Source: a virus
Taxonomy: Duplodnaviria > Caudoviricetes
Direction: 5' to 3' (one strand)
Virus record (IMG/VR): IMGVR_UViG_3300044513_002212
Coordinates: 1-63,349 of that record
Length of the DNA: 63,349 nucleotides
The first letter of the stretch is position 1. The number at the start of each line of letters is the position of its first letter. Below the pieces are notes generated by a model that was not told the DNA's origin, searched no databases, and worked only from the letters and a program-made list of their open reading frames with translations. This document shows positions 760 through 23,981 of this stretch, piece after piece. A program made the translations under genes and the position numbers.

Positions 760-833
760 GACTCAATAGCTCAGCTGGATAGAGCAACTGCCTTCTAAGC
801 AGTCGGTCGTAGGTTCGAATCCTACTTGAGTCG
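760..833 (+). tRNA. tRNA-Arg(TCT)
   Basis: Acceptor GACTCAA/TTGAGTC, anticodon arm ACTGC-CTTCTAA-GCAGT, GGTTCGAATCC. Confidence 0.95.
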
Positions 834-838
834 CCTTC

Positions 839-920
839 GTCGATGTGGCGGAATTGGTAGACGCGCTGGGTTTAGGTTCCAGTAGATTAATCTGTGGAGG
901 TTCAAGTCCTCTCATCGACA
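839..920 (+). tRNA. tRNA-Leu(TAG)
   Basis: Acceptor GTCGATG/CATCGAC, D-arm GGCGGAATTGGTAGACGC, anticodon loop TTTAGGT, variable arm. Confidence 0.95.
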
Positions 921-921
921 T

Positions 922-1473
922 ATGTTTGAGATTCTTTCAACTCAATTTGAGAAGGCAGACAAAATTAATCCTGGTCTAATAGACTGGATTAAATCTGATA
1001 GTTGCTATAAACTAATAACAGGAGCTTCTAGAACTCCTTTTTATTATGCGACACTAAAAGAGTGTCCAGTTGAAGAACTAAACATACTTTTTGATTTCAT
1101 AAGTCATAATATAATTTCTTGTGCAAATCAAATGGCAAAAGGAACTGCCAGTGCATACTATGATTCCCCAGATTGGCATAGAAACTTTGGTATTGCAGAC
1201 TATTGGGGCATGTGGTATAATAAAGGTTCTTCCGCCATAGGACATAACCACTGGCCTTATGCAATATCTTTTGCATATTATGTAAATTGTCCAGAAGGAA
1301 GTTCTCCCATCATTATTGATGGAAACGAAGTCCAAGTAGAATCAGGTAAACTAATTTTATTTCCTGGGCATTTAGTACATGAAGTAAAAACTTGTCCTGT
1401 AGACAATAGATTTATGGTGGCAGGTAATATCGCTTATCTAGGCGGTTTAGGTGCGGAGTTAGTTCAGTGGTAG
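922..1473 (+). CDS. 2OG-Fe(II) oxygenase superfamily protein
   Basis: HNH...SFAYYV...LILFPGHLVHEV...RFMVAGN pattern. Confidence 0.8.
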   Translation: MFEILSTQFEKADKINPGLIDWIKSDSCYKLITGASRTPFYYATLKECPVEELNILFDFISHNIISCANQMAKGTASAYYDSPDWHRNFGIADYWGMWYNKGSSAIGHNHWPYAISFAYYVNCPEGSSPIIIDGNEVQVESGKLILFPGHLVHEVKTCPVDNRFMVAGNIAYLGGLGAELVQW

Positions 1474-1524
1474 AACGCTATCCTTCCAAGTTAGATGTCG
1501 TCGGTTCGAATCCGATACTCCGCT
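1453..1524 (+). tRNA. tRNA-Gly(TCC)
   Basis: Acceptor GCGGAGT/ACTCCGC, anticodon loop CTTCCAA, U73 discriminator. Confidence 0.93.
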
Positions 1525-1533
1525 TTTAAAAAT

Positions 1534-2193
1534 ATGATCAAAGATTTATTTCCCACACCAGTATATGAGACGTTCCTTGAACCAACCAAGGAAGTTCAAG
1601 ATACTATGATTCATTATGTTCATGATTTCTTAGAAAAGAATCAAGAACATTTTGCCAATGTTCCCAGTCTTACTGGTGAGCTTCTTGGTGACTATCAAAT
1701 TTCCGACAAACCAGAATTTAAATGGTTATCCGAACAAGTTTTTTCTCACTGTTGTAAGTATATTGAAGAGATTGGAGCAACAATGGAACACAGTGAACTG
1801 TGGGCCGTTCAGTCATGGCCTGTAGTTTGCATAACCAATAGTTTTGTTGGATATCATAGACACTCTCAGTCTCATTTTAGTGCAGTGTATTATGTTCAGT
1901 GTGATGATGATTGTGAGTCTGGTGAATTGGTTATTCATGCTCACGAACCAAACCCCCTGAGTAATTTACCGATCTATCATGAGAGGTCTACAGCACACAA
2001 TAGAAGAAGAGATTTAATTTTACCTAAGAGAAATAAATTAGTTATCTTTCCTTCGGTACTTGCTCATGAAGTGTTACCGTATTATGGAGATCTTCCCCGA
2101 CTCTCAGTTTCTTTTGATATAATGGTTACATCTAAGAAAGATTCTGGAACATTTTGTCTGGTACATCCATCAAAGTGGGTAAAGCTTTCTTGA
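1534..2193 (+). CDS. 2OG-Fe(II) oxygenase (LFPTP-type)
   Basis: LFPTP start, HRH..SAVYY, LVIFPSVLAHEV, RLSVSFD; ATG after the tRNA chosen instead of 1495. Confidence 0.82.
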   Translation: MIKDLFPTPVYETFLEPTKEVQDTMIHYVHDFLEKNQEHFANVPSLTGELLGDYQISDKPEFKWLSEQVFSHCCKYIEEIGATMEHSELWAVQSWPVVCITNSFVGYHRHSQSHFSAVYYVQCDDDCESGELVIHAHEPNPLSNLPIYHERSTAHNRRRDLILPKRNKLVIFPSVLAHEVLPYYGDLPRLSVSFDIMVTSKKDSGTFCLVHPSKWVKLS

Positions 2194-2223
2194 TTAAATA
2201 GTAATGTGTCAGGAAAACGAGAC

Positions 2224-2505
2224 ATGTCCCAGAAGTACAGGATCCAAACATCTTATTGTTGGTATGAGACTTATGAGGAAACCTTGCTCGTAAAGATGTA
2301 CTTTATAAATTACATCCCATTTACATTTGACGAACTTCCATCAATATGTTATGATGACCCTGATATCTTAATGGAAGCAAACAAAAATAAAGTTTGGGAC
2401 CAGGACGATCTTTTTAAAGCTTCTGCATATCTTGCACAAGAAGAGTGTCTACCTCTAGTTTATGAATTAGAGTTGGAAAATCCAGAAGAACTTCCAAAAG
2501 ATTAG
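2224..2505 (+). CDS. Hypothetical cyanophage protein
   Basis: ORF with ATG at 2224 preceded by AGGA. Confidence 0.65.
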   Translation: MSQKYRIQTSYCWYETYEETLLVKMYFINYIPFTFDELPSICYDDPDILMEANKNKVWDQDDLFKASAYLAQEECLPLVYELELENPEELPKD

Positions 2506-2532
2506 TTTCTATGTTATAATAGAAACACTCAT

Positions 2533-2604
2533 TCCTCTTTAGCTCAGCGGTAGAGCGAACGACTGTTAATCGTTTGGTCCCTGGTTCGATCCCAGGAAGG
2601 GGAG
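2533..2604 (+). tRNA. tRNA-Asn(GTT)
   Basis: Acceptor TCCTCTT/AAGGGGA, anticodon arm AACGA-CTGTTAA-TCGTT. Confidence 0.95.
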
Positions 2605-2606
2605 TT

Positions 2607-2678
2607 GGGAGATTAGCTCAGCGGTAGAGCACCTCGTTTACACCGAGATTGTCACAAGTTCGATCCTTGTATCTCCCA
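2607..2678 (+). tRNA. tRNA-Val(TAC)
   Basis: Acceptor GGGAGAT/ATCTCCC, anticodon loop TTTACAC. Confidence 0.93.
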
Positions 2679-2693
2679 TGATTAGTATTGTAC

Positions 2694-3251
2694 ATGAACT
2701 ATTCAAAAGATGAAATAGAATACTTTGATGATGTCATGGATGTGGTTGAAAACCAGAGTATTGGCATTGATGAAAATCTTATTCTAGATCTTTTGCAGAT
2801 GAAGTATAGGTGGCCTAAAGGTCACGTAGAAACTATAAACATGTGCTCCATGGTTTCTGATGATTACTTTGACCACAGGGGTTATTTGTGTTTTGATGAA
2901 TGGAAACACTTATATGATCAGGGATTTACTACTCACCTGAATAATATTATGGATATTCATGTGGACCTTAGGAACATGAATAGAAGGTTGCTTGATGTCC
3001 GTGGATCAAACACTATGGGTAACTTATATCTCAGCAAAGGCACGACAACAAAGAGACCTAGTTTTCTTCCACACACCCATGATTACCACGTTGCAGTAAA
3101 GACCATATATGGTAAATCAAAGTGGTTGATAAACGACGAGATCATTGATGTGCAACCAGGAATTGATCTGTTTATTGGAGCGGGATCCACACATGCAGTC
3201 ATTGAATCTAAAGAACCTAGATTATCTTTGTCGATGAATATATCGGGATAA
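2694..3251 (+). CDS. JmjC/cupin-like oxygenase
   Basis: NLYLS...F.PHTHDYHV...GKSKW...PG..L.I..G.THAV...RLSLS. Confidence 0.7.
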   Translation: MNYSKDEIEYFDDVMDVVENQSIGIDENLILDLLQMKYRWPKGHVETINMCSMVSDDYFDHRGYLCFDEWKHLYDQGFTTHLNNIMDIHVDLRNMNRRLLDVRGSNTMGNLYLSKGTTTKRPSFLPHTHDYHVAVKTIYGKSKWLINDEIIDVQPGIDLFIGAGSTHAVIESKEPRLSLSMNISG

Positions 3252-4150
3252 TGACCTATACTCCAAAGGCATATGATGTATCTCAAGTAACTTGGGATGA
3301 TGTAATAGAAAAAATAAACAGAGATTTTTCTTCTGGCGACTATGATATTATTAGTAGTGTTAGTGGTAAAACTCCTACGTTTATATTAAAGGGGGCTTGG
3401 CTTCCTGATTCTATTATGAATGTAGTAGATCAAATGAAGCTACGTGATGAAGTTGATCTTCATAATATAGATCTTTATGTTTCTTTCTCTGGACATGCTA
3501 AGTCACATGATAATCATTATGACTTTTATGCCATTGAATTGATCCAATTAATTGGTAAGATGCGGTATTTCGTTAATGATGAACCGTGTGTATTGCACCC
3601 AGGCGACTCTCTATTCATGCCTGTAGAAACTTATCATGAACCACATGCTCCTGGACCGAGAGTTACTCTGAGTGTAGCTCTTTATAATAAAAATAAGAGG
3701 GTACAACCAGCTCTTGCTGAAAAGTATGTTGAGTGGATGGAAAACCTTGACATGCATAAAGTACCCCATGGGGATGGTAGTCTTATGGATCACTCCATTA
3801 ATGTTGCCAATCTAATTATGGAGTATGGTAGATCTGATATTGAACAAATAGCCGCTCTATTTCACTCAATTTATGGCACAGAGTTTCAATCTTATAAATT
3901 ATTAAAGACTAGAAAAGAAGTTCAATACTTCATCGGATACGAATCGGAAAATATAGTTCATATTTTCTGTACTCTGGAAGACAGGACAAATACAATACTC
4001 TATGGCAAAGGTTTATCCGAACCTATGAGAACTACCTTAAGATGGTTGGAGTATTGTAATATAAAAGAACAATTTCCCAAAGAAAGTATCTTGAAAGAGT
4101 TTGAACTTGTATTAGGAATACAAGGTAAAAACAATGATAGCCAGATGTAA
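3251..4150 (+). CDS. JmjC/cupin domain fused to an HD-like (DUF6817-like) domain
   Basis: N-terminal HYD...LHPGDSLFMP...HEP...RVTLS; C-terminal PHGDGSLMDH...AALFHSIYGT. Confidence 0.65.
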   Translation: MTYTPKAYDVSQVTWDDVIEKINRDFSSGDYDIISSVSGKTPTFILKGAWLPDSIMNVVDQMKLRDEVDLHNIDLYVSFSGHAKSHDNHYDFYAIELIQLIGKMRYFVNDEPCVLHPGDSLFMPVETYHEPHAPGPRVTLSVALYNKNKRVQPALAEKYVEWMENLDMHKVPHGDGSLMDHSINVANLIMEYGRSDIEQIAALFHSIYGTEFQSYKLLKTRKEVQYFIGYESENIVHIFCTLEDRTNTILYGKGLSEPMRTTLRWLEYCNIKEQFPKESILKEFELVLGIQGKNNDSQM

Positions 4151-4379
4151 ATGTTGCAACAAAGAAATTGTTGGCGGAACTAGAATGCAAAGCTGTGGAT
4201 GTTCAAACATGATGGCTGTTAGCGAGAACACAATCACTGCAAACGATTTGAATAAAGTAATTTTAATTAAATCTAAAAACATTATTAAAAATGGTGGTTT
4301 CCTGACAGAAAGTGACCTAAAATACCAAGAGGAACGACGCAAACGCAAAGTTCGTAAACTTGATTTCGAGGAACGTTAA
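4134..4379 (+). CDS. Hypothetical Cys-rich (zinc-binding-like) protein
   Basis: CKCC...CGC.N motif. Confidence 0.65.
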   Translation: MIARCKCCNKEIVGGTRMQSCGCSNMMAVSENTITANDLNKVILIKSKNIIKNGGFLTESDLKYQEERRKRKVRKLDFEER

Positions 4380-4591
4380 TGATCAACTTGCATCAGCTGT
4401 ACAATCACTATCTCAACACCGACAAGAAACATGATCTTGTTAATGAAAAGGTTGTGTCTTATGGATGGTGTGATAATGGCAAAGATCTTACTGGGTATTA
4501 TGTCTTGACAGAAAGCCATGAACTTCGTTATACTATGGAGGGTTATCTCGACAAAAAAATGTCTAGGAAGCCTGAAAATACTCGTGCCTAA
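4379..4591 (+). CDS. Hypothetical protein
   Basis: TAATG coupling to the previous ORF. Confidence 0.6.
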   Translation: MINLHQLYNHYLNTDKKHDLVNEKVVSYGWCDNGKDLTGYYVLTESHELRYTMEGYLDKKMSRKPENTRA

Positions 4592-4621
4592 GTGCATATA
4601 TAATTAACGTTTACGACCTTA

Positions 4622-5218
4622 GTGACTAAAATGTATCAAATACCTAATGCTGAATTGTTTTCTTTGAACACCAAAAATAATTTGATAAGGAAAGCTCTTC
4701 ATGATGAACTGAAAGGGAAAAGAGTAATTATCTTTGCAATTCCTGGTGCATTTACACCTACCTGTAGCAATAGTCAGGTTCCAGATTTTGACGAAGCTTA
4801 TGAAGAGATCAAATCTCTTGGTATCGATGAAATTTATTGCCTGGCAGTTAACGATCCCTTTGTCATGAAGGCTTGGTGGAAGCAACTTAAGGTACAGAAT
4901 CTCAAGTATCTTTGCGATGGTAATGCTGCATTCCTGGCAAGGTTTGAAGAAGTCGCTGGACAAAACCAGGCTGAGCAATATTACGTCAAGAAGTTTAATA
5001 AGGGTCTAGGTAGAAGAGCCTGGAGATTTGCTATGATTGTGGATAACACTGTTGTTACTCATATTTGGCAAGAAGAAACTTCTTCTAGTAGAGATAACTG
5101 CGAGGAAGATCCATACTTGGAGACCACTCCAGAATCAGTAATTTCTACTCTTAGGAATATTCAATCAGTTTCTGCTTCTCCTACTAAAGTTGTAGAAGAT
5201 CTTTCTGCTCCACAATAA
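4622..5218 (+). CDS. Peroxiredoxin (Prx5/redoxin family)
   Basis: PGAFTPTCS active site, CLAVNDPFVMKAW, DGNA. Confidence 0.9.
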   Translation: MTKMYQIPNAELFSLNTKNNLIRKALHDELKGKRVIIFAIPGAFTPTCSNSQVPDFDEAYEEIKSLGIDEIYCLAVNDPFVMKAWWKQLKVQNLKYLCDGNAAFLARFEEVAGQNQAEQYYVKKFNKGLGRRAWRFAMIVDNTVVTHIWQEETSSSRDNCEEDPYLETTPESVISTLRNIQSVSASPTKVVEDLSAPQ

Positions 5219-5222
5219 ATCA

Positions 5223-5251
5223 TTGACAACCTAGTAGTAATCGAGTATTAT
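5223..5251 (+). promoter_or_regulatory. sigma70-like promoter inside an inverted repeat
   Basis: TTGACA-17-TATTAT; ACCTAGTAGTAAT/ATTATTACTAGGT inverted repeat. Confidence 0.75.
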
Positions 5252-5265
5252 TACTAGGTCTTCTT

Positions 5266-5339
5266 CGGGATGTAGCTCAGTTTGGTAGAGCACTCGCTTT
5301 GGGAGCGAGGGGCCGTAGGTTCGAATCCTATCATCCCGA
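5266..5339 (+). tRNA. tRNA-Pro(TGG)
   Basis: Acceptor CGGGATG/CATCCCG, anticodon arm CTCGC-TTTGGGA-GCGAG. Confidence 0.95.
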
Positions 5340-5356
5340 TTTTCCTACTATTATCC

Positions 5357-5575
5357 ATGGAAAAGATTACTTTGCAGCACCTTGAAGATCACTTTGATGA
5401 GATCTTTGAACAAGTAGAACAAGGAAAATCATTTCATATCATGACACCAGATGGCAAAGATATCATGATGGTCCCTACTGCGGAGGCTATTCAAGCATCA
5501 ATCGATGCTGGACTGGTCTCTCAAATGGATGATACTTACTTTGATATGTACCATACGACCAGCGAAGCCTCTTGA
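5357..5575 (+). CDS. Phd/YefM antitoxin-like small protein
   Basis: MEKITLQHLEDHFDEIFEQVEQGKSFHI..DGKDIMMVP resembles the Phd N-terminal domain; ATG at 5357 (5282 lies inside the tRNA). Confidence 0.55.
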   Translation: MEKITLQHLEDHFDEIFEQVEQGKSFHIMTPDGKDIMMVPTAEAIQASIDAGLVSQMDDTYFDMYHTTSEAS

Positions 5576-5600
5576 CAACAGACTGATTTCACCGTACAAT
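5572..5600 (+). promoter_or_regulatory. sigma70-like promoter
   Basis: TTGACA-17-TACAAT. Confidence 0.75.
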
Positions 5601-5623
5601 AAACTTGTTCAACACAACGATCA

Positions 5624-5851
5624 ATGTCTCACTCGGCGTTTGTTTCTAAGTTCAAGACCAATCTGAATCTTCTGCAATCTGCAGTGAATCGGGAAACGGA
5701 TCTCGAATTCCGCCACCCCAAGATTTACAAAAAGATTGTGAAGTACTACCGCAATCAGGGAGTTCAGTTTTATAATGATCCTGACGATGATTATGAACTC
5801 GTCCTTGATCTGATTGCAGCAGATCTTCAAACTGAAGGAGTACTCGCTTGA
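5624..5851 (+). CDS. Hypothetical cyanophage protein
   Basis: 75 aa ORF after promoter. Confidence 0.7.
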   Translation: MSHSAFVSKFKTNLNLLQSAVNRETDLEFRHPKIYKKIVKYYRNQGVQFYNDPDDDYELVLDLIAADLQTEGVLA

Positions 5852-6099
5852 CAAAGATTCTTCTTGAACGTTTTCCCTATCGATACGTCGAAGTGGGAAC
5901 TCTAGACAATGGGTTCCCCGACTATCGTATTCAGAAGGCAGATTCTTATACCAAACGGTATAGTGACATGTATCTTCTTGATAATCAGATGCAACTTCTG
6001 ACAGCTATCGAAGATTTTGAGTATACGAAATGGTTAGATCCTGATCGTGTTCCTTGTTATGTCAAAGATGATGTATCTTCCGACATGGAGAGTCGTTAA
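5848..6099 (+). CDS. Hypothetical cyanophage protein
   Basis: TTG start with GGAG RBS, overlaps the previous stop. Confidence 0.7.
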   Translation: MTKILLERFPYRYVEVGTLDNGFPDYRIQKADSYTKRYSDMYLLDNQMQLLTAIEDFEYTKWLDPDRVPCYVKDDVSSDMESR

Positions 6100-6115
6100 A
6101 AACCCTGGTGGAGCC
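6081..6115 (+). ncRNA. RNA module 1 (hairpin + UGG anti-acceptor; possibly a manA-motif part)
   Basis: CGAC-ATGGAGA-GTCG, TTAAAAA, CCC, TGGTGGAGCC; same layout as 6745-6781. Confidence 0.55.
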
Positions 6116-6116
6116 T

Positions 6117-6764
6117 ATGGCTGATGTTCAATTACTATTCCCAACCCCAATTTACCATGACCAACTAGACATCTCTGATGACGAACGGTCAAGAATCCAA
6201 TCTTATGTTGAACATTTAGATTGGATTATAGATACGGACATTCATAATCGTCCTAACGGACAATATCTGGATGTATTTGATGTGCTTGCACACAATCCAT
6301 TATCTAATCTTGCAACGATTATAGATAATCATATGCACGCTTTTGTGCATGATTTCTTACGAGTTTCAAGAAAACTTCAGGTAAAGAGAACTAACTCATG
6401 GGCAAACAGACACTATTTGAATGACTATTGTCATGAGCATCATCATTCAAACAGTATCTTTAGTGGTGTATACTATCTAAATATTCCACCCAATTCTGGA
6501 CCAGGAATTGTTTTCAAGAGAATGGGCCCTACTTGGACTAATGATACTTGGGAACTTAATGTAGATGAGTTGACCGCTCAAAATGAATATGTTCACCTAA
6601 AAAGAGTTAACACTAATATGTTACTCTTGTTCCCATCACACCTAACACACATGGTTCCAGCCTCCGAAACTGATGAACCTAGGTACTCCATTGCTTTTAA
6701 TTACTTTGTTTATGGGGAGATTGGTGATGGAACAAACATCTTACACGTCTCGGACAGACGTTAA
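6117..6764 (+). CDS. 2OG-Fe(II) oxygenase (LFPTP-type)
   Basis: LFPTP, HHHSNSIFSGVYY, LLFPSHLTHMV, RYSIAFN. Confidence 0.85.
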   Translation: MADVQLLFPTPIYHDQLDISDDERSRIQSYVEHLDWIIDTDIHNRPNGQYLDVFDVLAHNPLSNLATIIDNHMHAFVHDFLRVSRKLQVKRTNSWANRHYLNDYCHEHHHSNSIFSGVYYLNIPPNSGPGIVFKRMGPTWTNDTWELNVDELTAQNEYVHLKRVNTNMLLLFPSHLTHMVPASETDEPRYSIAFNYFVYGEIGDGTNILHVSDRR

Positions 6765-6790
6765 ACTTGCCCTGGTCGGGAGTGTTTCCC
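6745..6790 (+). ncRNA. RNA module 2 (hairpin + UGG anti-acceptor; possibly a manA-motif part)
   Basis: ACGTCT-CGGAC-AGACGT, TAAACTTG, CCC, TGGTCGGGA, then GGGA/TCCC hairpin. Confidence 0.55.
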
Positions 6791-6799
6791 CTTAAGAGT

Positions 6800-7051
6800 A
6801 TGGAAGAAAAACAATACCCATCCGCCTCCAAGCAGATGGCTAACCTAACTAAAACCGCTTTTGGTATAGTCAAAGAGTTTGTAAGTACTGGTGACTTACT
6901 TGTTCCAGATCATGTCAGAAACGCTAGGTTGCAGATCTGTTCTACTTGTCAATTTTATGATGAAGCAGAACACAGATGCATGGATTGCGGATGTTTTCTT
7001 TCCAATAAAGTACGATTCAGTGCTTCCAAATGTCCCTTAGACTTTTGGTAA
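6800..7051 (+). CDS. Small Cys-rich protein (DUF6171-like)
   Basis: RLQICSTC...CMDCGCFL..KV...SKCPLDFW. Confidence 0.65.
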   Translation: MEEKQYPSASKQMANLTKTAFGIVKEFVSTGDLLVPDHVRNARLQICSTCQFYDEAEHRCMDCGCFLSNKVRFSASKCPLDFW

Positions 7052-7140
7052 GGTTTCTTTGTTCCTAAAACAAAGTGGTGCGGATGGGGTTAACCCCGCC
7101 TGGTTTCCAATTTCCAGTCAAAGAATTGGTGGCGAGCCTG
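7051..7140 (+). ncRNA. wcaG RNA motif-like element (two tandem pseudoknots, each followed by UGGYG)
   Basis: AGG/CCT + CTTTGTT/AACAAAG then TGGTG; GGGGT/ACCCC hairpin; CTGG/CCAG + CCAATTT/GAATTGG then TGGCG; lies upstream of a WcaG-type epimerase cluster in a cyanophage. Confidence 0.75.
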
Positions 7141-7159
7141 CAAACCTACAGAACAAAAA

Positions 7160-7747
7160 ATGGAACCAGCATATTCAGACTTTATAGGCGTATATAAAGA
7201 CGCTATCAATCCTGATCTGTGTGATTGGCTGGTTAACTATATGGATAAATCACAATACGTGCTTTCTCGTAATAGTCTTCACGTTCAGGACAAACAGATT
7301 TGTTTAGATTCTTTTTCTCCTAGTGAAGCCCAAGACTTGATGGACGGCGTTAATGCTTGTCTTATATATTATACGAAAAATTATCCATATCTAACTAACT
7401 TTAATTATGTAAGTTCTCTTACGTTACTTCAAAAGACAAATCCAACGGAAGGATATCATATCTTTCATGGTGAAAACTTAAATTGGAATGCATCTGACAG
7501 GACTATGGCTTGGATGGTGTATTTAAATGATGTCAAAGAAGGTGGTGAAACGGAATTTTTATATCAAGGTATAAAAGTAAAGCCTGAAAAGGGAAAGGTA
7601 GTTATATGGCCTGGATCTTATACACATATCCACAGAGGTAATCCTCCTGGATCACCAAAATATATTGCTACTGGATGGTATCAATGTGACATTGGATTGG
7701 ATCAGTTAAGAGTTAGAGCTCATGGAATAGAACTACCAGAAGAATAA
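7160..7747 (+). CDS. 2OG-Fe(II) oxygenase (prolyl-4-hydroxylase-like)
   Basis: GYHIFHGE, WMVYLNDV.EGGETEF, WP...THIHRGNPP..KYIATGW. Confidence 0.85.
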   Translation: MEPAYSDFIGVYKDAINPDLCDWLVNYMDKSQYVLSRNSLHVQDKQICLDSFSPSEAQDLMDGVNACLIYYTKNYPYLTNFNYVSSLTLLQKTNPTEGYHIFHGENLNWNASDRTMAWMVYLNDVKEGGETEFLYQGIKVKPEKGKVVIWPGSYTHIHRGNPPGSPKYIATGWYQCDIGLDQLRVRAHGIELPEE

Positions 7748-7815
7748 TCTGTATGGGTATTGTCAAAATACCCTTTTTTTATTATAATAAATACAACGCA
7801 GTAAACAATTAGACT

Positions 7816-8856
7816 ATGGCAAATAGTAAGACTGCACTCGTTCTGGGTGCTGGTGGTTTCATTGGAAGTCACATGGTAAAGCGTCTTCGTTCGGAAGGAT
7901 ACTGGGTTCGTGGAGTGGATATTAAGTATCCCGAGTTCAGTATTTCCGATGCTGATGACTTTGTTCAAGCTGACCTGAGAGATGCTGTTAGAGTCAAAGA
8001 ACTTATCGTCGCTCCTGATGGCGAATCGTTTGATGAGATCTATCAGTTTGCTGCAGACATGGGTGGAGCTGGTTACATCTTTACAGATGAACACTCTGCT
8101 GACATTATGCATAACTCTGCATCCATTAACCTGAACGTATTGGATGCCGTTAGAGATTTTAATGAGTCTAATAATGTGAACGCAACGAAGATCTTCTACA
8201 GTTCTTCTGCTTGCATGTATCCAGAACACAACCAATTAGATCCTGACAATCCTGACTGCCGTGAAGAATCCGCCTACCCCGCTAATCCTGACTCCGAGTA
8301 TGGATGGGAGAAACTATTCTCTGAACGTCTCTTCCTTGCTTACAATCGTAATTATGGGATCCCTGTTCGTGTTGCTAGGTATCACAATATCTTTGGACCA
8401 GAAGGCACCTGGGATGGAGGAAAGGAGAAGGCTCCAGCTGCAATCTGCCGTAAGGTCGCTCTCCTCCCAGAGACGGGTGGATCCATCGAGGTGTGGGGAG
8501 ACGGCCTACAAACTCGTTCCTTCCTGTTCATTAATGAATGCATTGAAGCGACTCGACGACTGATGGACGGAGAGTTCATGGGACCAGTGAATATTGGTTC
8601 TGAGGAAATGGTAACAATTAATCAGTTGGTGGAGACAGCCGCTAAAGTATCTGGTAAAGTGGTACAGAAACGTCACAAACTAGATGCACCTCTTGGTGTT
8701 CGTGGTCGCAACTCTAACAACGATCTCATCCGTGAGAAACTCGGTTGGGATTATTCTCAATCTCTGGAGGAAGGCATTCGTATTACCTATGCCTGGATCT
8801 CTGAACAAATTAAATCCCGTAAAGAATCTGAAACTAAGGAACTTGTAAATGCCTAA
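7816..8856 (+). CDS. NAD-dependent epimerase, GDP-mannose 3,5-epimerase-like
   Basis: GAGGFIG, AADMGGAGYI, YSSSACMYP, YGWEK, EKAPAAICRK, GVRGRNSNN. Confidence 0.88.
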   Translation: MANSKTALVLGAGGFIGSHMVKRLRSEGYWVRGVDIKYPEFSISDADDFVQADLRDAVRVKELIVAPDGESFDEIYQFAADMGGAGYIFTDEHSADIMHNSASINLNVLDAVRDFNESNNVNATKIFYSSSACMYPEHNQLDPDNPDCREESAYPANPDSEYGWEKLFSERLFLAYNRNYGIPVRVARYHNIFGPEGTWDGGKEKAPAAICRKVALLPETGGSIEVWGDGLQTRSFLFINECIEATRRLMDGEFMGPVNIGSEEMVTINQLVETAAKVSGKVVQKRHKLDAPLGVRGRNSNNDLIREKLGWDYSQSLEEGIRITYAWISEQIKSRKESETKELVNA

Positions 8857-9445
8857 TTCTACATTGACTAAAAAGACCATTCGAATTGATAAGGATGCAG
8901 TTCGGGCACTAGATGTGTCTGCACTTGAGCAACAATCTATCAACCCTAATGACTGGTTGACTGCAGGACAGAGCGAGTATCGTCTCTATGCATGGCTCTC
9001 CAGTCAGTTTGATAATACCACCATCCTTGATGTTGGAACCCGTACAGGTGGTTCTGCACTTGCTCTTTCTTACAACGATAAGAACCAAGTCATCAGTTAT
9101 GATCTGGTTGAACAGGGCGCTAGCTCTTCTATCAAGAAAGAGAACATCACTTTCAAGATTCAAGACTTCCGTGAGGACGACACTCTTGATTGGGATAACA
9201 TCTCTATCATCATGATTGACGTTGATCCTCATGATGGTGTTCAGGAAGTTGAGATGATGGAATTCCTGAATGAGAAGGGTTGGAAAGGTATCATGCTTCT
9301 GGATGATATTGGTCCTGGTTGGCCTGAAGTTCAGGACATGTGGGATGCAATTGAAGAACCCAAGATCGATGTGACTCCAGTTGGTCACATGAGTGGTACT
9401 GGACTTGTAAACTTTGGTTCTAAGCACGATATTGATTGGGCATGA
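8849..9445 (+). CDS. Class I SAM-dependent methyltransferase
   Basis: ILDVGTRTGGS motif I; IMIDVDPHDG; LLDDI. Confidence 0.75.
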   Translation: MPNSTLTKKTIRIDKDAVRALDVSALEQQSINPNDWLTAGQSEYRLYAWLSSQFDNTTILDVGTRTGGSALALSYNDKNQVISYDLVEQGASSSIKKENITFKIQDFREDDTLDWDNISIIMIDVDPHDGVQEVEMMEFLNEKGWKGIMLLDDIGPGWPEVQDMWDAIEEPKIDVTPVGHMSGTGLVNFGSKHDIDWA

Positions 9446-22680: not shown

Positions 22681-22793
22681 GAAACTCAAATCCCCAAAAC
22701 TCAGTGCTTGACAAGAATATGGGTTCGGGTTATACTAAATAAGTCAACGGGTTAAGAAACGTAAAGTTTGTTAATCACTTGTAACACCCCAAA

Positions 22794-22890
22794 CCGAGAC
22801 CTATAGGGTGTATAAATCACGTCTCTCATATCCTCGCTAAGGGTGCGAGGAGCATAGTATCTCCACCATTTCCCTGATGGTCTTACTACC
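22794..22890 (+). ncRNA. PhotoRC-II-like RNA motif in the psbA leader
   Basis: GAGAC/GTCTC, CCTCGC/GCGAGG, AGTA..ACCAT/ATGGT..TACT stems directly upstream of psbA. Confidence 0.75.
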
Positions 22891-22901: not shown

Positions 22902-23981
22902 ATGGCTGCTACACTTTCACGTCAAAAACAATCGAATACTTGGGAACAGTTTTGCAACTGGGTAACCAGCACTGACAATCGTCTGTATGTTGGTTGGTTC
23001 GGGGTCCTCATGATTCCTTGCCTACTTGCTGCTACTATCTGTTTCATCGTCGCTTTCGTCGCTGCTCCCCCTGTGGACATTGACGGTATCCGTGAACCCG
23101 TCGCTGGTTCTCTCATGTACGGAAACAACATCATCTCTGGTGCTGTTATCCCCTCTTCTAACGCAATCGGTCTTCACTTCTATCCCATCTGGGAAGCAGC
23201 CTCTCTCGATGAGTGGCTCTACAACGGTGGTCCTTTCCAACTCGTTGTCTTCCACTTCCTGATTGGTATTTACGCCTACATGGGTCGTGAGTGGGAACTT
23301 TCTTACCGTCTTGGTATGCGTCCCTGGATCTGTGTTGCATATTCTGCTCCAGTCGCTGCTGCGAGTGCAGTGTTCCTTGTCTATCCTTTCGGTCAAGGTT
23401 CCTTCTCTGATGCGATGCCACTGGGTATCTCGGGTACTTTCAACTACATGCTTGTCTTCCAGGCAGAACACAACATTCTGATGCACCCCTTCCACATGCT
23501 GGGTGTCGCAGGTGTCTTCGGTGGTTCTCTGTTCAGTGCAATGCACGGTTCGCTGGTTACTTCCTCGCTGGTTCGTGAAACCACTGAGTCTGAGTCCCAG
23601 AACTATGGTTACAAGTTCGGTCAAGAAGAAGAGACTTACAACATCGTTGCCGCTCATGGTTACTTTGGTCGTCTGATCTTCCAATACGCTTCCTTCAACA
23701 ACTCCCGTTCGCTGCACTTCTTCCTCGCAGCATGGCCTGTTGTCGGTATCTGGTTCACTGCTCTTGGTGTTAGCACCATGGCATTCAACCTGAACGGATT
23801 CAACTTCAACCAGTCTGTGATTGATTCGCAGGGTCGTGTTATCAACACCTGGGCTGACGTTCTGAACCGTGCTGGTCTGGGTATGGAGGTAATGCACGAG
23901 CGCAATGCTCACAACTTCCCTCTTGACCTTGCTGCTGCAGAGTCTACTCCTGTTGCACTCACCGCACCTGCAATCGGTTGA
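22902..23981 (+). CDS. psbA: Photosystem II D1 protein
   Basis: [14 protein letters not shown]...[13 protein letters not shown]; no intron. Confidence 0.99.

Follow-up and report, generated by a model that had tools for sequence, protein, structure and literature searches.

Single-stranded tails of a cyanophage wcaG RNA mirror the 3' ends of Synechococcus tRNAs

The window, i.e., the whole 63,349-nucleotide stretch of viral DNA analysed here, carries four small RNA modules, each ending in a tail that resembles the complement of a tRNA 3' end, together with tRNA genes of the phage itself. Which tRNAs, those of the host or those of the phage, would such tails address, and to what end? A first-pass annotation had suggested that the RNAs capture host isoacceptors while the phage-encoded copies escape, an interpretation that our analysis supports in part.

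The wcaG RNA and its upstream relatives

Positions 7049-7143 match the wcaG RNA (RF01761) over model positions 1-98 of 98 with 96.9 bits (E 7e-21), above the curated gathering score of 42. The setting is also that of the family, namely T4-like cyanophages and marine sequences with exopolysaccharide or high-light genes nearby, and the nearest records to the window are Synechococcus myoviruses. wcaG is a known but unexplained cyanophage RNA. The passages on it in Weinberg et al. (2010; PMC2864571) present a candidate cis-regulatory riboswitch with two or three hairpins, graded as a probable riboswitch candidate, and the literature passages naming wcaG RNA make no connection to tRNA. Like the RNA described there, that of the window resides in a T4-like cyanophage upstream of a 2OG-Fe(II) oxygenase and a WcaG-type epimerase (an NAD-dependent epimerase/GDP-mannose dehydratase-like ORF). 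However, its units consist of a pseudoknot and an anti-tRNA tail instead of hairpins, and extra units of a second scaffold type, outside the Rfam model, are found upstream. Modules 3 and 4 of the first-pass annotation correspond to both conserved single-stranded tails of wcaG RNA, which are already contained in the RF01761 consensus and follow the pattern UGG-N-7 nt, each 3' of an H-type pseudoknot. The features of the array are listed below.

5572-5600, plus strand: sigma-70-like promoter, TTGACA-17-TACAAT, 11/12 (consensus match only)
6081-6116, plus strand: module 1, type II unit, hairpin GAC/GTC with loop ATGGAGA
6746-6783, plus strand: module 2, type II unit, hairpin CGTCT/AGACG, linker TTAAACTTGCCC, tail TGGTCGGGAGT (6773-6783)
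7049-7143, plus strand: wcaG RNA (RF01761), modules 3 and 4, covariance model, 96.9 bits
7051-7075, plus strand: module 3 pseudoknot (type I), flank AGG (7051-7053) pairing with loop CCT (7064-7066), stem CTTTGTT/AACAAAG
7076-7087, plus strand: Leu tail TGGTGCGGATGG, exact complement of host tRNA-Leu(CAG/GAG) CCAUCCGCA+CCA
7087-7101, plus strand: hairpin B (GGGG TTAA CCCC) and GCC, directly 3' of the Leu tail
7102-7129, plus strand: module 4 pseudoknot, flank TGG pairing with CCA of the conserved loop TTCCAGTCAAAGA, stem CAATT/AATTG
7130-7140, plus strand: Arg-type tail TGGCGAGCCTG, 10/11 to host tRNA-Arg(acg)+CCA and tRNA-Arg(ccg)+CCA
7755-7788, plus strand: terminator-like hairpin and T run, overlapped by promoter TTGTCA-17-TATAAT

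The promoter at 5572-5600 could drive an operon with all four modules. Module 1, a type of unit also present in locus L414 and others, is composed of the hairpin, an A-rich linker containing the upstream stop codon, CCC and the tail TGGTGGAGCCT, which pairs with host tRNA-Ala(ggc)+CCA over 10 contiguous positions and includes GGAG immediately 5' of the ATG at 6117. The tail of module 2 forms nine contiguous pairs with tRNA-Pro (CATCCCGA+CCA), phage and host alike. The 11 nucleotides TGGTGCGGATG at 7076-7086 are the complement of CAUCCGCACCA, and through the G run of hairpin B the pairing could continue into the T stem of the tRNA, here reaching 14 nt. The complement of the Arg-type tail is CAGGCUCGCCA.

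Both the scaffolds and the tails are conserved among related phages. The flank:loop pairing of the pseudoknot is found in 56 of 61 distinct units, a count reached in none of 2000 partner shuffles, with the covariation variants AGG:CCT, GAG:CTC, TGG:CCA and AAG:CTT. With the other module as anchor, 115/118 arrays show the exact Leu tail, while the adjoining stems vary. In a survey of 75 type II units anchored only as far as UGG, the following bases are UCGG in 66, the hallmark of tRNA-Pro (C1-G72 and A73); eight units carry the Ala-type UGGAG and one the Leu tail. Conservation of the Pro-type tails is limited to UGGUCGG(G/U), 7 to 9 nt.

Complementarity of the tails to host tRNA 3' ends

We read host tRNA ends from the Synechococcus genome G001; the host genomes used here are sampled members of one family and not the proven host of this phage. 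Both tRNA-Leu(cag) and tRNA-Leu(gag) of G001 read GCGGATG...CATCCGCA, which bears out the cyanobacterial acceptor GCGGAUG named in the first-pass annotation. Host tRNA-Leu(CAG/GAG), once tipped with CCA, has a 3' end to which the Leu tail UGGUGCGGAUGG is perfectly complementary. Of the 151 sampled genomes of the host family, 142 contain a T-loop with CATCCGCA after it; across the phylum, the Leu target end is present in 46/121 genomes. The tails complement tRNA-Leu over 12-14 nt and tRNA-Pro over 9-11 nt. As for the other tails, the fit is exact for tRNA-Pro, contains one G-U pair or one mismatch for tRNA-Ala and one mismatch for tRNA-Arg(ACG/CCG), so that perfect tails are confined to Leu and some Pro.

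The expected match between module tails and host tRNA ends thus holds exactly for Leu but not for Arg. The end CAGGCUCG was not found as a tRNA 3' end in the hosts sampled; it occurs at two sites among the 150 matches listed (with 146 further matches), and ARAGORN detected no tRNA at either. Every Arg tail has one mismatch to each host tRNA-Arg found, the best reaching 10/11; in the window, the mismatch is opposite nt 71 of tRNA-Arg(acg) and opposite nt 68 of tRNA-Arg(ccg).

G001 has 42 distinct tRNA 3' ends, on which we scored random 8-mers as a null test. A score of 8/8 has P=0.00054, at least 7.5 has P=0.0022 and at least 7 has P=0.015. Among 12 tails scored, two reached 8, two 7.5, five 7, one 6.5 and two 6, whereas the reversed tails used as control scored 3.5-6. 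The exact Leu and Pro tails therefore have P=0.00054 and the Ala and Lys-like tails 0.0022; for the two Arg tails, another two Ala-type tails and the tail of module 1, P is 0.015 each. The discriminator base agrees as well: UGGU tails correspond to tRNAs with A73 (Leu, Pro, Ala, Lys) and UGGC tails to those with G73 (Arg).

Such agreement bears on whether wcaG is a metabolite riboswitch or a protein-binding RNA, in which the tails would belong to a pocket and their tRNA likeness would be incidental. Small riboswitches include pseudoknots with A-rich loops, and the strongly conserved unpaired stretches are typical of aptamers, in keeping with the published grading of wcaG. However, chance likeness would be needed independently for five tRNA families, each with the right discriminator. 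The units are moreover modular, occurring in one to four or more copies in changing order with differing tails on the same scaffold, unlike a single pocket, and most arrays are located at a transcript 3' end. We consider this explanation quite improbable.

Where the host acceptor stem contains a G-U pair (Ala 3:70, Arg(ccg) 2:71, Arg(acg) 5:68), the tail holds the Watson-Crick partner of the 3' strand. Judged from these positions, the tails are complements of the acceptor 3' strand and not copies of the 5' strand. CCA is not encoded in 41/44 tRNA genes of G001, so the UGG of the tail must face post-transcriptionally added CCA, and the apparent target is the mature tRNA. These features make it very improbable that the pseudoknots are spacers punctuating multi-tRNA or multi-gene transcripts for processing, with the tails as leftovers of tRNA 5' ends or as enzyme guides, which would leave the UGG opposite non-encoded CCA unexplained. 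The tails have A where tRNA-Ala must have G3 and hence are not tRNA 5' ends, and the sequence after the 7-mer is unlike a D arm. Even though the arrays are situated in tRNA clusters and that of locus L324 begins 2 nt past a phage tRNA gene, a pseudoknot-like fold comes immediately after just two of the 507 phage tRNAs of these loci, and both cases are doubtful.

Cofolding with 52 tRNAs, using an energy model without pseudoknots, tRNA tertiary structure or modifications, gave the best gain for host tRNA-Leu(cag) with -13.0 kcal/mol, compared with -2.6 for phage tRNA-Leu. tRNA-His (-10.3) and tRNA-Pro(ggg) (-10.1), the latter two without any tail logic, ranked second and third.

Phage tRNAs and their fit to the tails

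A phage tRNA gene is present in the same locus for 100/121 arrays, at a median distance of 893 nt and within 2 kb in 96. Three such genes of the window bear on the tails.

760-833, plus strand: phage tRNA-Arg(tct), 72.4 bits, acceptor GACTCAA/TTGAGTC, discriminator G, 3' end TTGAGTCG
839-920, plus strand: phage tRNA-Leu(tag), acceptor GTCGATG/CATCGAC, discriminator A, 3' end CATCGACA, CCA not encoded
5266-5339, plus strand: phage tRNA-Pro(tgg), acceptor CGGGATG/CATCCCG, discriminator A, 3' end CATCCCGA

The phage tRNA-Leu(tag) differs from the target of the Leu tail at positions 70 and 71 with the acceptor pairing kept, as had been noted at first pass. It shares both the D arm and the T arm, letter for letter, with host-family tRNA-Leu(tag) in genomes G092 and G030, and the changes at acceptor pairs 2:71 and 3:70 are compensatory. 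It looks like a host-type tRNA-Leu(UAG) with these two pairs exchanged, and the exchange abolishes the pairing with the tail, leaving only five contiguous pairs. In related phages (121 loci), the GCGG acceptor is found in 0/25 tRNA-Leu(tag) genes.

The proposed escape of phage copies from the tails is accordingly supported for Leu, but not for Arg or Pro. Module 4 and the phage tRNA-Arg indeed mismatch, CAGGCUCGCCA being the target and TTGAGTCG the phage end. However, the phage tRNA decodes AGA (UCU anticodon) and is unrelated to the Arg-type tail, which is nearest to host tRNA-Arg(ACG)/(CCG); the comparison pairs unrelated isoacceptors and is therefore uninformative about escape. The phage tRNA-Pro does match its module as claimed: with added CCA, it forms nine contiguous pairs with TGGTCGGGA at 6773-6781, and its acceptor equals that of host tRNA-Pro(cgg) in G001. 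Pro-type tails pair about equally with phage and host tRNA-Pro, with eight contiguous pairs to the phage tRNA in 14 of the 20 loci having both (nine in the window), which argues against discrimination.

All phage tRNAs have a wobble U (Leu-UAG, Arg-UCU, Pro-UGG, Gly-UCC, Val-UAC). The Leu codons CUG+CUC make up 75% in G001 (62% GC) versus 28% in the phage, the Arg codons CGG+CGC+CGU 86% versus 28%, GCC 53% versus 13% and CCG 34% versus 4%. This codon use fits a high-GC host; the contrast with the phage disappears for family members of low GC content (40% in their loci).

Genomic setting, a possible role and known systems

The ten ORFs around the array (922-9445, Pfam) include oxygenases, a peroxiredoxin, an epimerase and a methyltransferase-like ORF. 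In the window, the 2OG-Fe(II) oxygenase ORF (7160-7747) separates the array from the terminator/promoter composite, which in most related phages is directly 3' of the array. The next ATG follows 60-79 nt downstream in 65 of 92 distinct contexts, and in the contexts listed, this gap is filled by a terminator with a -35 box in its loop (tool-checked in L335). The terminators after most arrays overlap a promoter, not the tails. A terminator seems to close about two thirds of the arrays, an arrangement that speaks against a 5'-UTR riboswitch and differs from the described cis-regulator, most arrays being located ahead of a terminator.

This setting weighs on the idea that the same pairing serves in cis, reading the supply of uncharged tRNA-Leu, -Arg, -Ala and -Pro as a T-box-like sensor. 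The pseudoknot under the stacked helix would leave no room for an aminoacyl group on A76, and binding would switch translation or RNA stability of the 2OG-Fe(II) oxygenases, a small membrane ORF and the sugar epimerase. UGGN opposite NCCA, with N matching the discriminator, agrees with such a sensor. In the window, every tail resides 0-25 nt upstream of a start codon, and modules 1 and 2 overlap GGAG-type ribosome-binding sites. In some contexts, GGAG or GGGAG of Pro and Ala tails, the only tails with a candidate Shine-Dalgarno overlap, is spaced from the next start codon as a ribosome-binding site would be, so part of their conservation may reflect a Shine-Dalgarno signal. Possible off states, found by eye, would pair part of the Leu tail with GCC after hairpin B, and GGCG of the Arg tail with a conserved CGCC 5' of its pseudoknot. 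In 6/92 contexts, an ATG follows 10-19 nt past the last tail, as a cis role would have it. Against this, with a terminator and a separate promoter ahead of the ATG in the more common 60-79 nt arrangement, the last three tails have no gene to control in cis. Several different tRNAs serially ahead of one gene are also unlike known T-boxes. We regard a cis-acting sensor as rather unlikely.

Our tentative preference is that the wcaG RNA tails are antisense sites for mature, CCA-tipped host tRNA 3' ends, by which host tRNAs would be removed or marked. The tails mirror host tRNA tips and the phage tRNA-Leu is altered out of fit, which together suggest that the RNA grips or senses host tRNAs; its binding or capture of tRNA, and the effect thereof, we infer from sequence. 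wcaG RNA and its upstream relatives in the operon would constitute a string of small H-type pseudoknots with single-stranded tails, each composed of UGG, a discriminator-complementary base and 4 to 8 bases complementary to the acceptor 3' strand. The presumable targets are tRNA-Leu(CAG/GAG), tRNA-Pro, tRNA-Ala(GGC) and tRNA-Arg(ACG/CCG), and in small-genome hosts also tRNA-Leu(UAG). The free NCCA end would dock onto UGGN in T-box fashion, the tail-tRNA helix would stack onto the pseudoknot, and pairing would proceed into the acceptor stem, favoured where a Watson-Crick pair with the tail replaces a G-U pair of the tRNA. Host tRNAs, or their uncharged fraction, might thereby be withdrawn from circulation or marked, while the U-wobble phage tRNAs decode phage messages and phage tRNA-Leu evades the Leu tail via its two compensatory changes. 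Against capture, pairing can pass beyond NCCA only if the acceptor stem opens, and a sponge would have to reach copy numbers comparable with those of abundant tRNAs.

T-box riboswitches are tRNA-sensing leaders of Gram-positive bacteria, defined by UGGN-NCCA pairing with a discriminator match. At the sequence level, the wcaG tails share this contact, and their helix would likewise be stacked on an adjacent one, which could allow the charging state to be read. However, T-boxes also contact the anticodon through the Stem I specifier, which wcaG arrays lack: no Stem I-like element was seen in the array alignments, and Rfam T-box models matched neither the window at gathering score nor positions 6000-8000 at E<=10. 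Specificity of wcaG would instead come from continued pairing into the acceptor stem, and its units, phage-borne and mostly not leaders, stand in series for different tRNAs. The primer-binding sites of retroviruses and LTR retrotransposons also begin with TGG, complement a specific cellular tRNA 3' end over ~18 nt and need the acceptor stem opened. The wcaG tails are TGG-initiated complements of the same kind, but they span 8-14 nt, and several of them with different tRNA specificities adjoin one another on a pseudoknot scaffold; Pfam revealed no reverse transcriptase among the ten ORFs between 922 and 9445.

Phage tRNAs are known to replace depleted host tRNAs. As in such strategies, cyanophage success hinges on tRNA availability, and phage tRNAs cover codons poorly served by the host. 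According to the passages concerned in PMC11726456, Leu-tRNA supply decides the resistance of Synechococcus to Syn9; neither these passages nor the titles of related literature describe an RNA pairing with host tRNA ends. Whereas those strategies employ tRNA genes and nucleases or expression loss, a pairing RNA would act on the tRNA pool here.

Array architecture and its two scaffold types

The window covers a 63-kb piece of a T4-like cyanomyovirus genome (CheckV completeness 32 in the IMG/VR record). Among named phages, the closest to it are Synechococcus phages, for example S-RSM4, S-H9-1 and S-H9-2 (285 records matched, 217 of them named Synechococcus phage). Eight phage tRNA genes reside in the first 9.5 kb, together with four 2OG-Fe(II) oxygenase ORFs, a JmjC/cupin ORF, a peroxiredoxin and a WcaG-type epimerase. 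The oxygenase ORFs are paralogous and, like the JmjC/cupin ORF, interspersed among the tRNA genes and RNA modules at 922-7747. Further along, a PhotoRC-II RNA (RF01717, 80.4 bits, 22772-22865) lies directly 5' of a psbA ORF (22902-23981) of 359 residues, which is 87-94% identical to cyanobacterial psbA.

The wcaG model of Rfam (RF01761) matches 7049-7143 with 96.9 bits, and modules 3 and 4 of the first-pass annotation correspond to the two conserved unpaired tails of this RNA. All sequence statements of that annotation proved correct when checked against the window sequence. A tail denotes here the single-stranded stretch of UGG, one base and 7 nt after the fold, proposed to complement the CCA-tipped 3' end of a host tRNA.

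RNA modules and tails in the window
about 6081-6116: module 1, a type II unit
about 6746-6783: module 2, a type II unit
7049-7143: modules 3 and 4, type I units, together the Rfam wcaG RNA
7076-7086: tail of module 3, TGGTGCGGATG
7130-7140: tail of module 4, TGGCGAGCCTG

Related units were sampled from at least 120 viral stretches with the loop of the second wcaG hairpin as the sole anchor (type I), and from 119 further stretches anchored on a second scaffold type (type II). The units thus collected show two scaffold types. Type I consists of three bases, UUU(C/A), a stem of 6-9 bp, a loop and the closing strand, where the loop opens with the complement of the three flanking bases and continues with A-rich sequence. 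The flank:loop variants include AGG:CCU (22), GAG:CUC (19), UGG:CCA (4) and AAG:CUU (1), besides others. Among the arrays listed, flank and loop pair in 56 of 61 distinct type I units; shuffling the partners gives a mean of 46.8, and none of 2,000 shuffles reached 56. This covariation suggests that the type I unit folds as an H-type pseudoknot. Type II comprises a short hairpin with GG in its loop, an A-rich linker and CCC, and, as judged by eye, has an H-type arrangement as well. In both types, the fold stops exactly at the start of UGG, which is followed by one base, about seven further bases and, in most units, a small hairpin.

A MAFFT alignment of the arrays was not used for counting pairs because it aligned the loop of the first pseudoknot incorrectly, and a loose pseudoknot finder without the UGG requirement was too unspecific to use (TGG after 79 of 167 units). 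A minimum free energy fold pairing the 5' AGGUUU with the Arg tail was dropped because of the absence of covariation with the flank variants.

A common full array in other phages runs from a type II Pro-type unit through a membrane ORF of about 77 codons to type I Ala, Leu and Arg units. The conserved ORF separates the Pro-type and Ala-type units in the phage loci L330, L335, L336, L349 and L384. Its start codon is located 9-12 nt past the Pro-type tail, whose GGGAG could be its ribosome-binding site.

Complementarity between tails and host tRNA 3' ends

As a host reference we used the Synechococcus genome G001 (2.1 Mb, 62% GC), found via its psbA locus, and took the ends of its 44 tRNA matches from Rfam coordinates. 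Its tRNA-Leu(cag) and tRNA-Leu(gag) read GCGGATG...CCATCCGCA and, with CCA added, are the exact complement of the Leu tail UGGUGCGGAUGG. The first-pass annotation stated that cyanobacterial tRNA-Leu acceptors begin GCGGAUG and would match module 3, which is true for these two tRNAs. The tRNA-Pro(cgg) end CATCCCGA matches, as a perfect complement, the tail UGGUCGGGAUG from other phages, and the tRNA-Ala(ggc) end TGGCTCCA pairs with UGGUGGAGUCA at all 11 positions, including one G-U pair. Two rarer tails pair with the same tRNA-Ala(ggc) with one mismatch each, and another rare tail matches tRNA-Lys over 10 nt. The tail GAGCCUG complements tRNA-Arg(acg) and its variant GUGCAUG complements tRNA-Arg(ccg), each with a sole exception opposite nucleotide 71. 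Random 8-mers compared with the 42 distinct G001 ends score 8/8 with P=0.00054, at least 7.5 with P=0.0022 and at least 7 with P=0.015; in the same test, 9 of the 12 tails scored at least 7 and the reversed versions 3.5-6. A crude cofold calculation ranked host tRNA-Leu(cag) first of 52 at -13.0 kcal/mol, compared with -2.6 for the phage tRNA-Leu, and also gave high ranks to tRNA-His and tRNA-Pro(ggg) without an obvious cause.

Base 4 of the tail tracks the discriminator, being U for A73 tRNAs and C for the G73 tRNA-Arg. At acceptor G-U pairs the tail bears the Watson-Crick partner of the 3' strand, indicating that tails are complements and not copies of tRNA 5' ends. Since 41 of the 44 G001 tRNA genes lack an encoded CCA, UGG can face only the mature tRNA end. 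All three features fit pairing with mature tRNA. A target inside the window was not supported, as a search of the window for either target 11-mer with 0-1 mismatch gave no further copy.

The matching ends are widespread. A T-loop followed by CATCCGCA occurs in 142 of 151 sampled genomes of the G001 family, usually in two genes each, and in 46 of 121 genomes phylum-wide. In the same family, the Ala end TGGCTCCA is near universal, the tRNA-Arg ends CCATGCTCG and CCAGGCGCG are almost always present, and CATCCCGA, CGCCCCGA and CGCTCCGA are recurring Pro ends. Several small-genome members carry 3-5 copies of a Pro-type tRNA ending in CGCCCCGA, grouped on one contig. A host tRNA ending exactly as the module 4 target CAGGCTCG, which the first-pass annotation had called for, was not found among the family matches listed, where the two exact matches are no tRNA according to ARAGORN. 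On the phage side, 115 of 118 arrays, selected blind to the Leu tail, carry its exact sequence UGGUGCGGAUGG, and the 75 type II units selected only up to UGG continue with UCGG in 66 cases, UGGAG in eight and the Leu tail in one.

We consider it likely that the tails have evolved for pairing with the 3' ends of host tRNAs. Four points speak against this reading: the acceptor stem would have to open, every Arg tail has a single mismatch, Pro tails are conserved over a short span only, and the Pro and Ala tails contain Shine-Dalgarno-like sequence.

Transcript layout and regulatory alternatives

In the relevant section of its 2010 description, wcaG is presented as a cis-regulatory element with an unknown ligand (Weinberg 2010; PMC2864571), and passages of two cyanophage genome papers treat it likewise. 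Our literature search found nothing joining a cyanophage noncoding RNA with a tRNA acceptor stem. The next ATG lies 60-79 nt downstream in 65 of 92 distinct contexts. The printed downstream contexts contain a GC hairpin with a -35 box in the loop, followed by a T run and TATAAT; a scanner confirmed this terminator/promoter composite in L335, and the window has one at 7755-7788, beyond an extra oxygenase ORF. The whole module-bearing operon could be transcribed from a promoter-like site at 5572. This layout fits an RNA at a transcript end better than a 5'-UTR switch. A ligand riboswitch, as the published view would have it, appears improbable to us, and a T-box-like cis sensor, which would also read host tRNA 3' ends through the tails, rather unlikely. 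Presuming that the tails do pair with host tRNAs, we tentatively favor titration or inactivation of host isoacceptors over such a sensor.

In L335 (422-458), in the window (7755-7788) and in many other loci, the intrinsic-terminator loop of the composite carries the -35 box (TTGACA, TTGCAT or TTTACA), and the T run after the hairpin is followed by TATAAT at promoter spacing, so that one element would end one transcript and start the next. At 250-320, just after an ORF ending at 245, the window also contains a terminator-like structure, a long-range inverted repeat (GGTGCGG...CCGCACC) with a T-rich run behind it. The first arm of the repeat reads TGGTGCGG, like the Leu tail, without a preceding pseudoknot.

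RNA-library contigs span 5900-7172, and contigs from three studies end at 7149-7172; in the RNA-library run X3, per-contig depth falls from 45 before about 7170 to 7.9 after it. These contigs give a weak hint of a 3' end past the last tail, weak because contigs cannot show ends or levels and the libraries possibly contain DNA. In two RNA-library runs, short high-depth contigs pile up at 5959-6073 on the 3' part of a small ORF (5848-6099). Several other phages likewise have type II units behind this ORF end, and the pile-up therefore probably represents many related phages.

Phage tRNAs and a proposed control of the host tRNA pool

A tRNA gene is present in the same locus for 100 of 121 arrays, at a median distance of 893 nt. 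ARAGORN identified 507 tRNAs in the 121 array sources, the relevant families being Leu(tag/caa/aag), Arg(tct/acg), Pro(tgg) and Ala(tgc). Pseudoknots directly 3' of phage tRNAs were sought among the 507 and gave two doubtful cases; that the units are processing spacers we rate as the least probable explanation.

The first-pass annotation proposed that the modules may capture host tRNA-Leu and tRNA-Arg and that the phage-encoded copies escape. For Leu, the comparison agrees with this idea. The first 27 bases of the window tRNA-Leu(tag) are those of its counterpart in G092 and G030, small-genome members of the G001 family, except at positions 2 and 3, and the T arm is identical, but the acceptor is GTCGATG/CATCGAC instead of GCGGATG/CATCCGC. 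Overall, 65 of 83 positions are identical, with the remaining differences in the anticodon stem and variable arm. Among 25 phage tRNA-Leu(tag) genes, 19 start with GUCG, six with GCCC and none with GCGG. The pattern is what escape would predict. One ancient acquisition with subsequent drift would leave a similar picture. Pro tails form eight contiguous pairs with the phage tRNA-Pro of the same locus in 14 of 20 cases, a count in which mis-trimmed tRNA ends gave too-low script scores in four of the 20, the window included. Scored by hand, the window pair has nine contiguous pairs. Such pairing with the phage's own tRNA-Pro means no discrimination. The Arg comparison was uninformative because it set a UCU tRNA against a tail directed to tRNAs that read CGN.

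Codons served by the tRNAs that match the tails are dominant in G001 and minor in the phage. CUG+CUC make up 75% of Leu, CGG+CGC+CGU 86% of Arg, GCC 53% of Ala and CCG 34% of Pro codons in G001, whereas the phage shares of the same sets are 28%, 28%, 13% and 4%, respectively. In loci of low-GC family members this contrast is absent, which counts against generality.

It is possible, albeit doubtful, that wcaG is part of a multi-site anti-tRNA RNA of cyanophages. Its pseudoknot-anchored tails would invade the CCA ends of host G/C-wobble isoacceptors for Leu, Arg, Ala and Pro, either disabling or titrating these tRNAs or soaking up their uncharged forms and thereby blunting the stringent response. 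Decoding would pass to the phage set of U-wobble tRNAs, in which the tRNA-Leu, with its recoded acceptor stem, would be invisible to the tail.

For wcaG, an orphan RNA since 2010, tail pairing with named host tRNAs is a concrete and falsifiable reading. It could account for the association of phage tRNA genes with wcaG-type RNAs and for a phage tRNA that departs from the host equivalent precisely in its acceptor stem, and, if true, would offer abundant ocean viruses a means of shifting the tRNA pool of major primary producers. Next to T-boxes and retroviral primer sites, it would also add a third natural RNA class recognizing tRNA 3' ends. If the anti-tRNA RNA reading holds too, phages would have a new way of taking over host translation, and wcaG would be the first natural RNA acting in trans on tRNA acceptor ends.
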